A model generated the notes under the pieces. The model was not told where the DNA came from. It saw nothing but the letters and a program-made list of their open reading frames with translations, and ran no database searches. Source: Dictyostelium discoideum (Eukaryota). From it: a stretch of 64,000 nucleotides of DNA. Shown here one piece after another: positions 22,189-49,476 of the stretch. The translations under genes and the position numbers were made by a program. Numbering within the stretch: the stretch's first letter is position 1; the number at the start of each line of letters is the position of its first letter. The stretch spans positions 672,001 through 736,000 of the forward strand of contig CM000154.2 in assembly GCA_000004695.1 (NCBI GenBank), given 5' to 3'.

Positions 22189-25100
22189 ATGAGCTTTTTT
22201 AGTAATTTATTTTCAAAACCTGAAGAGTAAGCAAATAAAAATAAAAATAATTACAACAAGATAATTTTTGAGGAAATTAAAAAAAAAAAAAAAAAATCAT
22301 TAATTAATTTTAAAAAAAAATCATTAATTAATTTTAAAAAAAAATCTAATCTTTTATTTAAATAGTAAATTAACATCTTTTCAAGTTTCAAAAGCACCAA
22401 CATTTGAAGAATTTAAAAAAACATTAAAAGATAATGGAGTCTCTGATACAACATTTGAAGATTTGTTTGAAAAAATGGTATTAATGACATTGACGTCATT
22501 TTTAGAAAAGTACCCATCAAAAGAAACTTCAAAATGTCAACATAGTAAGTTTTATTTTTTTTTCTATTTATATACCAACAAAATTATTAATAGATTTTTT
22601 TTTTTTTTTTTTTTTTTTTTTTTTTTTTATAAAAAGTTCCAACACAACCAGAATGGTTTTATTCATGTAAAACTTGTTGTAATGAATCAAACTATTATTG
22701 TAGAAATTGTTTTTTTGATGGTGAACATATTGAAAAAGGACATTCAATTTCAATGACAGAAAATTCTAGTGGTAGAGTTTGTGATTGTGGTGGTGAAGGT
22801 ATTAAACCTGAAGCATATTGTAGTAAACATATTAAATCCAATGAAAAGGTAAAGCAAGAGCTACTAAGTAAGATTCCAAGTTTCGTTAAAAAGGATATTC
22901 ACATTTTCTTTAGATACTCACTTCAATATCTTCAATATTTGTCAACTACATCAGCAACTCAACCAACAATCTCTGAAGAGAACAAAGAGGAGACCATATT
23001 AATTGGAAGTTGGTTCATTATGATAGCATCAATTTCATCGTCATTGGTTCATATGGCTGCAGAAGAAACTTCAGGAAGAGTTTTAGATTCATTAGAGAAT
23101 GGTGAATTTAAATTGAATGAACACAAACCATTACCTTACAAAATTGAAACTCATTCAATGGATGGTAACAGTGATATTATTCAACCATTTGCAAGTAAAA
23201 ATTCAAGTTTATTATCATTTGTATTTGGTAATAGTACCGCATTGCATTCTCTATTGCCATTGATCATCATTTTATATGATAATCATAAGAATTTCAAATT
23301 GGTGGTAATTGAAGAGTTTCTTAAAAACTATTCAAACTTATTTAAAAATAGAGATCAAGTTTCCACCGATATCTCTTTGAAAATGTCAAGTCTCTATTTG
23401 GGTAATAGTTTAATTTCAAAGTTTTGTACCGACTATTCAAAATATAATTACTTGGAATTGGTATTACGTGCTCATAAGAATTACTATGTACCATTGTTAT
23501 TACCATTCTATCAAACTTCAAATCCAGAGGATATCAAAAAGGATGTTATGTTACAAACTGATCTTGAAAATTTCCCAAGATTAATGAAATCCGCGAATAT
23601 TGTAAAATACTTTGTAACCGATGAAGAGAAAATGGATTTATTCTTTGAATTGGCAGGTTCTTATCATAAATTTACAACCTTGGAATATATTGACCCATCA
23701 ATTTCAACTTGTAAATTCCTTTTAAACACTGAACATTACCTTGTCAATACCATTAGAAATATTTTGACAACTATTGAATCTGAAAAAGATTTTATTTTTG
23801 ATTCTGAAACTTTGAAAAAGAAGTTTTTAGATTCAACAATTAAAAGTATCGCCGAGAAATTGGTAAAGAATATTAAAGAATTAAAAAAAAGAGAAATGAC
23901 AAATCGTTGTGGTATGATGTTAGAACATAAGGACTTTTTCGTTAATTTCACCTATGCTGAAATTCCTGTACATTTCCCATTGTTCCGTATTTTATCAGCT
24001 TTCTTATTACTTAGTGGAATGGATCCAATGGAATTGTTGACAACAAAATATAATCTAACTCAAGCTGATATCACTGAAATGGTTACAACTATTCTTTTGT
24101 TTAGATTCTGTTATATCACCTATGATATTCAATCCTCCACTGAAAATATCACCGATATCTCCATGTTGTACGATTTACATATACTTCAAGTTGGTCTCTG
24201 TTTATTGGGTACAAAGAAATTCTTATTGACTTTCTTTAATGCTTTATCATCAATCAGTCATGGTAACAATTCAAAGGTATTCGTTGATAATCTTTCCTTG
24301 TTAATCTCTGTATTCCAAACTAGAGCAAATCTTGCACCAACTAAAACTCAAGCATTCTATCATTTGTACCAAGGTGCCATGTCTGGTTTATTCTTTAAAG
24401 TTCATTTCCGTTCATTCGATATGATTTTACCAGGTTTCACTGAAAATGATATTTGTGAAAAGCATATCGAAGAGTTTACAACACCAGGTGAAACAGAAAA
24501 GCTTTTACTCGATCAAACCAATTGGAAATATTATGATAAATATTATCCATACTTTTCTTTGAACTATCGTGATTTAATCTCTTCAAATTGTTCAAAGAAG
24601 TATAAAGCCTATCAAGAATCATTGGGTTTACCAGGCAACTTCAATCCATTACCACCACAACTTGAAGAATTACCATCACAATTATCTGGTGTTTATTCAG
24701 CATTAAATGATCAATACCTTTTCGAAATGATTTTCAATGTTTTGGTTGCACCATTGCACTCAACATTTGTTGATTATGAAAATTCCTTTGAATTACAATC
24801 TGTTATCAAACGTTTATTCTCTTCAGTTCCAGTTCCACCAATCAATGAATTTTTTTATATTTTAACATTGACTTTCAAATCTTTTAAAGAACAATTCTTA
24901 CCAAAATTACAAGATTCAGAGAAATTGGAATTACAACAATCACTTCAAGAATACTTTAAATTGGATTCTGAAAATAAATTCACTTTCAAATTCCAATCAA
25001 CAATTAAAGAGAATGCAATCACTCATTTACTTCAAGTTTATCATGTTAACTTGGGTGAATCAAATGGTAAAGTTATGTTATCATTATATGATTTACTTTT

Positions 25101-46700: not shown

Positions 46701-49476
46701 AGAAAATCAAGAAAACCAAGAAGGAAAAGAAAAAGAATCAATTGAAAATGTTGAAGAGAAAGAAGAGGATAGAATTAGAAGAGAAAATAATAATAGTAGA
46801 TTTAAATTTGATTTTACATTAAAAACAAAGAATAATTATGCAATTTATAATTTATTAAGAATTTATAATGTTGAAATTGATATTGGTGTAAAAGAGAAAT
46901 TATCATTCTTGGATATTTTATTCAAATTTTGGGATTTAATGACAAATAAATCACAATACTTGGAATTACGTTCAAGTTTATTATACATTTTTAATTTCCT
47001 TTTAGAATTTGACCCAATCTTTGAAAAAGTATTCAGTGATAATAAAATCGATTTAGTACGTGATGTTGAAACTTCAGCTCAAGATGAATTGGCTCAAAAG
47101 AAACTAATGGCTGAAAAGAAAGAAAGACTTTTACAACAAATGAGAGAACAACAAAAATCATTTTTAGAAAATTATAATAAAATTTTAGTTGAAGGTGATG
47201 AAGAAGAAGAAGAAGAAGATGATGATGATGATGATAATGATGACGGTGATGATACTGATGAAAATCATTATGAAAATGAACAGGATAATTATAATAAAGA
47301 AAGTGAAGAAAATCAAGGAAAAGAAGGAAATGAAGAAGATGGTGATAAAGATGATAAAGATGATGATGATGAAGAAGAAGCAGCTCCATTAAAACTTAGA
47401 AATACAATTAAAGCACCTGATACTTATGAAAATGATGATGAAGGTTGTAATGATGATAAAGATGTTGAAAATTTTGAAAAACAAAAAGAACAATCAACAA
47501 TTAATATTGAAATTCAAAGTGGAGGTATTGATGAAAATGAAATTAATAATGAAATTACAAAAGAAAAACAAAATGAAGGAGAAGGTGAAGAAGAAGTAGA
47601 AGAAATTGAAATTGGAGAAGAAGAAGGTGAAGAAGTTGAAATTAAAGTTGATGTTAAGAAATCAAATAAAAATAATAAACATCACAAACATGAATCACGT
47701 AAAATTGAAATTTCCATTGAAGAAGAAGGTGAATTTGAACCATGTATAATTTGTAAGAGTGGTGAAAGAGGTGGTAGATTATTTACAATGGGTTATATTG
47801 ATTTATCATCAGTTAATCATCAAAATTCAGTTCAAAATAATTTTAATTTAGCAAATGATACAGAGATGGGATTAGATCCACTTTATCAACATTTCATTGA
47901 AACATTCTATCTCACCGATATTAAACCAGGTACAACTCATTACATTCCCTACAAAGATGATCCAGCAGGTTTATTTGCATGTTACATTTTCCAAAGAAGT
48001 CCATCCACTTATATCTCTAGTTGTGGTCATAATATTCATAAGAATTGTTTGGATAAATATGTAAAGGAACAAGAACAACAAAAGACTGATGAATTTATTA
48101 CAGCTTTCAATTGTCCACTTTGTAGTAGACCATCAGATTTCATTTTACCATTGGGTGAACCACTAGATTCAAATCAATATAGATCCGATGCAAATGATAT
48201 GTTCACCAAGTTATGTTATTATGATTTCTTGGTTCTAATGGATCCTGAAAAAAAATATAGTATCGATAAATATTTATGGAAATTCGTTTTACAAAATATT
48301 GAAACTTTGGAATTAAAATCAAGAAAAACAAATCTATACTCTCAAGAAGATTATTTCATTATCTCTGAAATTGATTTCCAAAAGGAATTAACTACTACCA
48401 CTCGTTTATTCAATGTTATTACTTCGGCCAATGTTGAACCTGATCAAATCTTACCAATCTATGATCCCTCATCTTTCTTTATGGATCCATTCACAAGTAG
48501 TAGTTATTCAATTTTCCTCTCAAAAAAAGATCATTTGTCTTTAATTTTTGAAGGTATTTCAAAATATCTCTTCAATGTAGTACTTTTCCATTGCATAAAG
48601 AAAAGGGTTGTACCTGAAAATCAATTAAATAATAATGTTCAAACTCAAAAACTTGTCGAAAATGAATTTCAACTTTTATTTAGTAACAATAACAATAATA
48701 ATAATAATACATCAATGGATAAAGATATTGAACTTGAATTTAAAAATCAAATTCATCCATACATTAGAAAAGTTTTAATACTCTATTCTTTAATTTCAAA
48801 TACGACAATAATCGATACAAAAGATGATTTCCCAACAGTTCCTTCATCAAGTACACCATTGACAGTTGAATTATTATCAGATTTCGATAAATGTATTGGT
48901 TATTTCGGTTATTCAAATGTTCAATCAATGTTTAATCATCTATTAAATAAGGATACTTTTGAATTAACTCTTAGTAAATTTATGAAAAAGAAGAAAATTA
49001 CATCAACCATCTCCACAACCCCAACATTATATTGCTCTTATCCACCACCATCAGACTATAGATCATTACCACGTTTCATTTCATTGCCTGAGAAATTTGT
49101 GACCTTAATGCAAGAGAATATCTGTGCTGGTAATTGTGATTGTGATTCACTTTTGAAATTGGTTTGTTTATTATGTGGTCAAAGTGTTTGTACTGTTAAT
49201 GCTTGTAAAAAAGGTGGTGCCGTCAGTCATTGTTATGTTTGTAGTTCAACACCTTTAGGTTTCTTCCATTTAATAGATAAACCACTCATTCAAGTTTACC
49301 ATTTCCAATTTGGTTCTTTTAAGAATTCCTTCTATACTCATATCTATTTAGATAAAGATGGTCAAAAATCAAGTACTACCTCTGTAGAAATCTCATTATC
49401 TCAAAAGAGATTGAAAAAACTTTATAAGTATTGGATGGATACAACAAATTCCAGAAAATTTTTAATCACAAAATAA
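43755..49476 (+). CDS. UBR-box E3 ubiquitin ligase (N-recognin family), paralog 2, with a large acidic insert
   Basis: Exons are 43755..43977 (MGNTFSF…TLKCQH, GTAAGT donor) and 44255..49476. The 277-bp intron contains (AAT)n. UBR box: SEWFFTCSKCCLANNSCICTLCFLSGNHISEGHSFSL…CDCGNSEAIKREGFCSEH. It is collinear with paralog 1 (PLPYK, YVPLLLPFYQ, LLLFRVCYVSYD, GRLFTMGYIDLSSV, FACYIFQRSPSTYISSCGHNIHKNCLDKY, the C-terminal Cys-rich domain). It also has an E/D/K-rich insert of about 180 aa at about 47050-47720. Confidence 0.8.

Follow-up and report, generated by a model that had tools for sequence, protein, structure and literature searches.

Human UBR1 and UBR2, Arabidopsis PRT6 and Saccharomyces cerevisiae Ubr1 are single-chain RING E3 ubiquitin ligases and the closest described relatives of the two genes analyzed here. 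In human UBR1, type-1 selectivity depends on D118, T120 and D153, and the alpha-amino group is held by T120, F148 and D150 (PMC8346999). In yeast Ubr1, the Ubc2-binding region (U2BR) is a single helix before the RING that makes most of the interface with Ubc2 (Kd ~140 nM), and mutation of F1183, Q1186 or F1190 severely lowers activity (10.1101/2021.04.12.439291; PMC11668491). PRT6 has a RING with large loop insertions and an N-domain that is disrupted or absent; it keeps an acidic CDCGD pocket and degrades substrates with an N-terminal Arg (PMC11668491). An autoinhibitory role of the C-terminal UBLC domain is known for yeast Ubr1 only (cited in PMC11668491). Dictyostelium discoideum has a functional arginyltransferase, Ate1 (PMC6594445), and our literature search found no paper on UBR ligases in Dictyostelium. 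Here, we analyzed a stretch of 64,000 nucleotides of AX4-like D. discoideum DNA (hereafter the window; contig CM000154.2, positions 672,001 to 736,000 of the forward strand), which carries two UBR-type genes, p1 (22189-27162) and p2 (43755-49476). All positions are those of the whole window.

The explanation that we favor, with a probability of roughly 60%, is that p2 has kept the ancestral architecture of its family, that p1 is a remodeled and functional derivative, and that the pair has been sub- or neofunctionalized. In other respects the pair is ordinary: its E3 ligase class is a known one, and p1 carries an existing annotation as a zinc-finger protein of N-recognin type and as an E3 ligase.

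Gene models, domains and family placement

Gene models were built by reading the sequence and splicing at GT..AG sites, and GT..AG borders were present in every intron of both genes. The genes and their conserved domains are as follows.

22189-27162, + strand: p1 gene (putative derived paralog); exons 22189-22226, 22366-22544 and 22637-27162; 1580 amino acids (aa).
43755-49476, + strand: p2 gene (putative ancestral-type paralog); exons 43755-43977 and 44255-49476; 1814 aa.
22532-22830, + strand: p1 UBR box, aa 69-137; PF02207, E 4.4e-10, 39.9 bits; contains intron 22545-22636.
43965-44454, + strand: p2 UBR box, aa 71-141; PF02207, E 5.4e-13, 49.3 bits; contains intron 43978-44254.
25435-25821, + strand: p1 RING-H2 variant, aa 1006-1134; CVIC...C-x-H-x2-H-x2-C...CPKSGC.
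47743-48123, + strand: p2 RING-H2, aa 1238-1364; CIIC...C-x-H-x2-H-x2-C...CPLC; aligned to the RING of UBR1/UBR2.
26407-27111, + strand: p1 UBLC/PRT6_C, aa 1330-1564; PF18995, 29.6 bits, E 4.4e-7 with the C-terminal fragment as query.
48682-49437, + strand: p2 UBLC/PRT6_C, aa 1551-1802; PF18995, 50 bits, E 2.9e-13.

Both open reading frames were intact. An earlier note on this DNA, made from the letters alone, had described two UBR-type paralogs in the same orientation about 21 kb apart, and this was borne out: both lie on the + strand, with start codons 21.6 kb apart and 16.6 kb between the p1 stop and the p2 start. Its size estimate of 1500-1600 aa fitted p1 and not p2, for which a length of 1593 aa corresponds to the open reading frame from an internal ATG. 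The spliced p1 translation was identical to P0010 (XP_637052.1/EAL63576.1/Q54JV0, D. discoideum AX4), which bears the database name 'Zinc finger, N-recognin domain-containing protein' and whose 90% cluster consisted of five sequences from D. discoideum and D. cf. discoideum strains. The exon structure of p2 agreed with the annotated models of its orthologues in D. cf. discoideum (P0001; 91% identity, 93.6% over aligned codons) and D. citrinum (P0002/P0014; 87% identity). The exact p2 protein was not found in a collection of 15 billion protein sequences, and the protein search returned no p2 orthologue from D. discoideum strains; the missing protein may be an annotation or database gap.

The similarity between the two proteins is far beyond chance. 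BLASTP gave E = 0 over the N-terminal 850 aa and 5e-166 over the C-terminal 570 aa, and a global alignment gave 46.7% identity over 1541 aligned positions, in line with the moderate identity anticipated in the note. The domain calls made there also held. Against the Pfam gathering cutoffs (25.2 bits for zf-UBR PF02207 and 26.2 bits for PRT6_C PF18995), zf-UBR, the model of the three-zinc UBR-box fold, was above the cutoff in both proteins; UBR-box PDB chains of UBR1, UBR2 and PRT6 were matched, and all Cys/His columns of the UBR box were invariant. All eight Cys/His ligands of the RING-H2 were invariant in an alignment of 16 family members. The Cys-rich C-terminal domain was recovered as PRT6_C above the cutoff in p2 and in the C-terminal fragment of p1; that of p2 aligned to UBR2 residues 1450-1736, and seven C-terminal Cys/His were invariant in the 16-sequence alignment.

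The intron that splits the UBR box follows ...KCQH in phase 1 in both genes, at the identical position as had been noticed before, and the same holds for their D. cf. discoideum orthologues, for the gene of D. purpureum and for a third paralog (described below). Since position and phase are the same in all of these genes, including that of D. purpureum, this intron is ancestral. In p2, it also holds a (TAA)63 microsatellite (44057-44250).

A family profile built from 16 dictyostelid proteins matched full-length human UBR2 (9wbv_A; E 2.6e-43) and UBR1 (9wbw_A; E 4.9e-37). Five segments of the match were collinear: the UBR box, the scaffold, the pre-RING helix with the start of the RING, the RING, and the C-terminus. 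The profile also matched the UBR boxes of PRT6 (E ~3e-16) and yeast Ubr1 (E 4.5e-10), the UBR box being the only part of yeast Ubr1 that was matched. A ClpS-like N-domain serves type-2 degrons in UBR1, UBR2 and yeast Ubr1. Pfam gave no match to such a domain, at a cutoff as lenient as E <= 10, in the 400 aa that follow the UBR box, and UBR2 residues 213-377 stayed unaligned in the profile match. Thus, with no detectable ClpS-like N-domain, the architecture appears closer to PRT6 than to UBR1/2 (PMC11668491). An exhaustive HMMER search of 1.84 billion representatives returned only 31 proteins at E <= 1e-10. The best matches that were looked up were all dictyostelid, and the dictyostelid matches split into family A, which includes p1 and p2, and two more distant UBR1-like families, B and C. 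Judged by their sequences, p1 and p2 are diverged paralogs of the UBR1/UBR2/UBR3/PRT6 class of single-chain RING E3 ubiquitin ligases.

Comparison with the described systems revealed both shared and distinct features. Human UBR1 and UBR2 (9wbw_A, 9wbv_A; UBR boxes 3NY1-3NY3) have UBR box, helical scaffold, RING-H2 and UBLC in the same collinear order as family A, with a basic helix before the RING as the putative equivalent of the family-A helix, and a long insert between ligand pairs of the RING-H2 is common to both. On the other hand, p1 and p2 have no detectable ClpS-like N-domain and differ from UBR1/UBR2 at the positions of D118 and D153, family A has an N-terminal myristoylation consensus and a long acidic linker before the RING, and p1 additionally lacks the pre-RING helix. 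To our knowledge, the N-termini of UBR1/2 carry no myristoylation consensus. PRT6 (UBR boxes 6LHN, 7XWD-G) shares UBR box, RING and UBLC with p2 and has a U2BR where p2 has its candidate helix, and the PRT6_C model matches both p1 and p2; its CDCGD motif is replaced by CDCGN in p2 and CDCGG in p1. Yeast Ubr1 (7MEX/7MEY), whose U2BR helix occupies residues 1165-1200 immediately before the RING, belongs to the same overall class and differs from p1 and p2 in having a type-2 N-domain and an acidic type-1 pocket. Families B (P0021/P0023) and C (P0020/P0026) have the same domain order as family A, including the pre-RING helix, but they are only ~24% identical to p2, have no MG N-terminus and have short helix-to-RING linkers (32-52 aa). 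No gene of family B or C was found in the window; these genes are located elsewhere in the genome.

The pre-RING region

The earlier note had described an E/D/K-rich insert of about 180 aa in p2. A segment that p2 has and p1 does not was indeed present, but it comprised 225 aa (approximately 47068-47742) and was not purely acidic, because its first 41 aa form a conserved basic helix. The features of this region are as follows.

47068-47190, + strand: p2 pre-RING basic helix, aa 1013-1053, ...AQKKLMAEKKERLLQQMREQQKSFL...; candidate region for binding of an E2 (Ubc2/Rad6).
47191-47742, + strand: p2 acidic linker, aa 1054-1237, 43% D+E, between helix and RING; partly made of GAT/GAA-type trinucleotide repeats.
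25219-25434, + strand: p1 T/A/S-rich linker, aa 934-1005 (72 aa), 51% T+A+S, in place of the helix and acidic tract.

Across 11 dictyostelid UBR proteins of families A, B and C, four columns of the helix (K, M, Q and F) did not vary. The family profile placed the p2 helix opposite 'RKAEIARLRREKIMAQMSEMQRHFI' of human UBR2 and a segment of UBR1, both just before the RING, and the M-x2-Q-x3-F spacing of p2 equals the F1183-x2-Q1186-x3-F1190 spacing of yeast. The pre-RING helix of p2 is probably an E2-docking helix at the U2BR position.

Distribution of the segment indicated the direction of change. Helix and acidic linker were present in D. purpureum, P. violaceum, Heterostelium, Acytostelium, a dictyostelid-like EukProt sequence and the third paralog, and were missing only in the p1 clade and, for the helix motif, in two Tieghemostelium paralogs; the helix also occurs in families B and C and has an aligned counterpart in human UBR1/2. 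Because both elements occur in outgroup genera, in D. purpureum and in the third paralog, they are ancestral and p1 carries the loss, which reverses the proposal of an insertion in p2. Between the end of the helix motif and the first RING Cys, there were 192 aa in p2, 111-150 aa in D. purpureum, the third paralog and Polysphondylium, and 77-88 aa in Heterostelium and Acytostelium. The p2-specific part of the linker is therefore only an extra length of 40-115 aa (192 vs 77-150 aa in other family-A proteins).

In p1, the helix motif was not found by pattern search, and an hhalign comparison of its linker with the helix profile gave a probability of 0.6%. No counterpart of the 72-aa T/A-rich linker was found outside the p1 clade. 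By eye, a possible remnant of the helix N-cap could be seen in p1 ('NVEDSLKDLNIKD' vs 'DVETSAQDELAQKK'), for which no claim is made. Among the other family-A proteins, the T. lacteum paralogs P0017 and P0019 kept the MGN..S start, had no pre-RING helix motif and showed very long branches, which suggests an independent duplication and helix loss.

N-terminus, RING spacing and 5' intron

Three other features distinguished p1 from other family-A members, two of which correspond to the following positions.

43755-43775, + strand: p2 N-terminus MGNTFSF; fits the N-myristoylation consensus (PROSITE PS00008) at Gly2.
22227-22365, + strand: p1-specific 5' intron, 139 nucleotides, GT..AG.

First, the PS00008 pattern (G-{EDRKHPFYW}-x2-[STAGCN]-{P}), applied at Gly2 after Met, matched all 13 non-p1 family-A proteins from at least eight dictyostelid species, each of which starts with MGN(T/N/Q)xS/T/A. 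It matched none of the seven p1-clade proteins and none of seven proteins of families B/C. The p1 protein starts with MSFFSN, and all seven proteins of its clade start with MSFFS or MNFFS. Where the earlier note had assigned a myristoylation-like or short leader to each protein, a myristoylation-type N-terminus was present only in p2 (MGNTFSF). No second ATGGGNAAYAC was found in the window, which leaves no upstream MGNT-type exon for p1. Second, the last ligand pair of the RING was CX4C in the p1 clade (CPKSGC, CAKVGC or CAKSDC) versus CPLC (CX2C) elsewhere, and D. firmibasis and D. dimigraforme have kept CX4C in their p1 orthologues. Finally, the additional 5' intron of p1 that had been noticed before is real and required, since read-through meets a TAA immediately. 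The D. cf. discoideum orthologue of p1 has this intron too; p2, the third paralog and D. purpureum do not. A perfect 24-bp tandem repeat (2.5 copies, 22288-22346) lies within the p1 intron.

Origin of the pair and rate of change

In a neighbor-joining tree, p1, p2, the third paralog and the single D. purpureum gene formed one group-4 Dictyostelium clade with 100% bootstrap, and the p1 stem branch was the longest. The proportion of synonymous differences (pS) was 0.53-0.58 among the three paralogs and 0.64-0.67 between them and D. purpureum, all of these values being near saturation; the lower pS among the paralogs agrees with a position of D. purpureum outside the three.

The earlier suggestion of a local duplication followed by divergence was correct in that a single gene was duplicated and has diverged, but the pair is not the whole family. 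The p2 orthologue of D. cf. discoideum is followed, ~380 kb downstream on the same contig (JBTAPI010000072.1), by the third family-A paralog, P0004, at 591580-596954. P0004 encodes 1763 aa with an MGNT start and a U2BR-like helix and is 52% identical to p2. Protein search with P0004 returned no orthologue from any other genome and, from the D. discoideum complex, only P0004 itself.

Synteny in other dictyostelids had been proposed before as a check. In D. cf. discoideum, a single contig carries the orthologues of both p1 and p2, with order and orientation unchanged and 10.5 kb between them. Upstream of p1, D. cf. discoideum, D. firmibasis and D. dimigraforme have the same neighbors (a UBA-domain protein, a UQ_con E2 and EF-2). 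The gene downstream of p2, nicastrin, keeps its place in both D. cf. discoideum and D. citrinum, where aligned DNA carries the synteny on through the ArgRS and CYFIP genes. At the D. purpureum locus, no flanking genes in common with the p1, p2 or third-paralog loci were found within +/-10 kb, so that synteny points to none of these as the ancestral locus. Segmental duplication was considered and rejected: tblastx and blastn of the window halves matched only the UBR gene bodies and no flanking genes.

The two genes have evolved at different rates. Tajima's relative-rate test gave 226 unique changes in p1 versus 127 in p2 (p = 1e-7), and p1 had ~1.7 times the lineage-specific substitutions of p2, as tested with three different outgroups. 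The same test showed equal rates for p2 and the D. purpureum gene (133 vs 134).

Proposed history and points against it

In the history that we favor, p2 would have kept the ancestral set of features, namely the MGNTxS start, UBR box, scaffold, pre-RING helix, acidic linker, RING-H2 and UBLC/PRT6_C. p1 would have been born by single-gene duplication in the lineage of the D. discoideum complex, around the time of the split from D. purpureum or later. It would then have passed through a burst of change in which Gly2 and the lipidation motif were lost, the 5' intron was gained, the core of the U2BR-like helix was lost together with the acidic linker, and the last RING pair changed from CX2C to CX4C, before settling under purifying selection. 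Functionally, p2 is probably a membrane-associated E3 whose helix and RING dock a Rad6-type E2 and whose UBR box and scaffold bind substrates. p1 is probably a soluble E3 that recruits its E2 by the RING alone or uses a different E2. Given these proposed differences in anchoring and E2 recruitment, the pair would be sub- or neofunctionalized rather than redundant. Since neither protein keeps the acidic pocket of UBR1/2 (see below), the degrons of p1 and p2 are probably not canonical type-1.

Several observations weigh against this history. Regarding the helix, the segment-level E-values of its matches to UBR1/2 were weak (0.012 and 0.065, inside a strong multi-domain match), the 41-column helix profile alone retrieved no UBR1/2 from PDB, and the alignment was to human UBR1/2 and not directly to the yeast helix with demonstrated E2 binding. 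Pfam RING models were sub-threshold in p1 and p2, and the myristoylation motif of family A is predicted from a six-residue consensus. With respect to timing, the distance tree placed D. purpureum outside the three paralogs with a bootstrap of only 50-65%, and with such weak nodes the duplication could predate the D. purpureum split and have been followed by loss there. Presence and absence calls from the protein database are incomplete, as p2 of AX4 and the p2 orthologues of several strains were not returned. In the comparison of UBR-box pockets given below, the loop alignment at D118/T120 could be off by one residue.

UBR-box pocket and alternative explanations

A more far-reaching version of the favored history, which we put forward only tentatively, is that family A, including p2, is a lipid-anchored UBR1-type E3 whose neutral UBR pocket would read other N-termini or internal degrons at membranes, and that p1 is a recently evolved soluble derivative without the Rad6-docking helix and with a re-tuned RING.

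The UBR-box pocket was compared with that of human UBR1. The alignment was made against UBR2 and a plant-type UBR box, with the columns of D150 and D153 anchored by the CDCG motif. The positions of D118/T120/F148/D150/D153 were A/N/V/D/N in p2 and E/N/V/D/G in p1, and only D150 was kept. These residues do not support canonical Arg/Lys/His recognition by either protein. The earlier assignment to the N-degron pathway, with pocket residues not kept and no ClpS-like N-domain detectable, was therefore not established. One other dictyostelid UBR family keeps D153 in Acytostelium, and the Arg/Ate1 branch may be served by other dictyostelid UBR families or by different proteins (cf. PMC6594445).

The same residues bear on a second explanation, in which p1 and p2 are both redundant, canonical N-recognins of the Arg/N-degron pathway (UBR1/PRT6 orthologues) and their differences reflect neutral drift of low-complexity sequence. 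UBR box, RING and UBLC are all there, D150 and all zinc ligands are conserved, and some Arg N-recognin is to be expected in a species with a functional Ate1 (PMC6594445). However, D118 and D153 have been replaced, by A and N in p2 and by E and G in p1 (PMC8346999), and two further UBR1-like families of dictyostelids could serve the Arg branch. The changes in helix, Gly2 and RING spacing go beyond low-complexity sequence and are each fixed across the p1 clade, and the acceleration of p1 is significant. We consider this explanation unlikely.

A further alternative is that p1 is a decaying or non-catalytic copy that has lost productive E2 recruitment, either a pseudo-E3 or a regulator binding substrates or p2. 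It would agree with the loss of the U2BR-like helix, whose yeast counterpart gives most of the E2 interface (10.1101/2021.04.12.439291), with the non-canonical CX4C pair of the RING, and with the p1 branch being the fastest-evolving in the family. The present constraint on p1 argues otherwise. Calculation of the ratio of nonsynonymous to synonymous substitution rates (dN/dS) between p1 and p2, as suggested in the earlier note, was uninformative because synonymous sites were near saturation (pS 0.56, dS ~1.0), and orthologues were used instead. Between AX4 and D. cf. discoideum, dN/dS was 0.175 for p1 (1578 codons) and 0.195 for p2, and both genes are now under strong purifying selection. All eight RING ligands and all UBLC ligands are retained in p1, and the RING region was the best-conserved stretch between p1 and p2 at the DNA level (70% identity over 1.08 kb). 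In addition, p1 is conserved in at least four species, with identities of 75% in D. firmibasis and 80% in D. dimigraforme. Such constraint suits a catalytic or structured regulatory role and not decay, and p1 appears from its sequence to be a remodeled functional gene rather than a pseudogene. Decay or loss of catalysis seems somewhat less probable than redundancy.

Finally, the idea that an acidic stretch of ~180 aa was newly inserted into p2 once the gene had been duplicated, and that p1 represents the ancestral state, is very improbable: although the p2 linker is the longest in family A and its trinucleotide-repeat tracts can expand by slippage, so that part of its length would be a p2-lineage expansion, helix and 77-150-aa acidic linker occur in every non-p1 family-A protein outside Tieghemostelium and the T/A-rich replacement is confined to the p1 clade, which refutes the idea as far as the helix and the presence of an acidic linker are concerned.

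Neighboring genes in the window

The window had a G+C content of 20-25%, with poly-N/T in its coding tracts, and was 99.6% identical to the chromosome-scale D. discoideum contig CM142511.1. No tRNA genes were found within it. Two of the conserved neighbors upstream of p1 are as follows.

14883-15987, + strand: UBA-domain protein gene, upstream of EF-2 and p1.
16228-17217, - strand: Ubc9-like E2 (UQ_con, 159 aa), just upstream of EF-2 and p1.

A functional link between p1 and this E2 gene, which lies 5 kb upstream, was considered and rejected, the E2 being, as we take it from its sequence, a Ubc9-type SUMO E2 and not Rad6.

Directly downstream of p1, short ABC2_membrane/ABCG-like open reading frames were observed (27274-28322, - strand). 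At the same position, D. dimigraforme has a full-length ABCG/PDR transporter of 1462 aa (80% identical over 27404-28198), and in D. citrinum an ABCG/PDR transporter lies upstream of the tubulin gene. The AX4 copy looks like a pseudogene remnant. The 6.8 kb between p1 and the tubulin block (27223-34055), which in AX4 holds this remnant and a protein-kinase gene (29445-30856, - strand), was without a DNA match above 250 bits in D. cf. discoideum, where only 3.1 kb with a different 300-aa gene lie between p1 and the tubulin block. In D. firmibasis, a methyltransferase gene (locus positions 15134-16873) adjoins the 3' end of p1 and corresponds, in inverted orientation, to window positions 3534-5162, a 457-aa open reading frame ~17 kb upstream of p1. 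The arrangement points to an inversion or rearrangement between D. firmibasis and the window, with a breakpoint at the 3' end of p1. The protein database search returned no p2 orthologue for D. firmibasis.

Immediately upstream of p2, there is a 695-aa gene with poly-N and leucine-rich/FNIP-like repeats (41390-43477, - strand). It is absent at this place in D. cf. discoideum, and D. citrinum has a 725-aa gene with 84% DNA identity. At the other end, a gene that runs off the window (61540-64000, + strand) encodes a signal-peptide protein with long Thr/Ser/Gly-rich mucin-like repeats, which account for the high G+C content (0.40) of the last 2 kb.

Implications for UBR ligases in Dictyostelium

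What is new here, as far as sequences can tell, is the reversed polarity of the supposed insertion, the apparent loss of the pre-RING helix and lipidation motif in p1, and a UBR pocket that seems to be non-canonical. Three hypotheses are raised by these features: N-myristoylation of a UBR1-class ligase, a UBR-box pocket that is not acidic, and UBR function without a U2BR helix. Together with the other UBR families, p1 and p2 are obvious candidates for joining arginylation to proteolysis in Dictyostelium. If the more far-reaching version of the history is true, nature would have tried out in p1 how the coupling of a UBR ligase to its E2 can be rewired.

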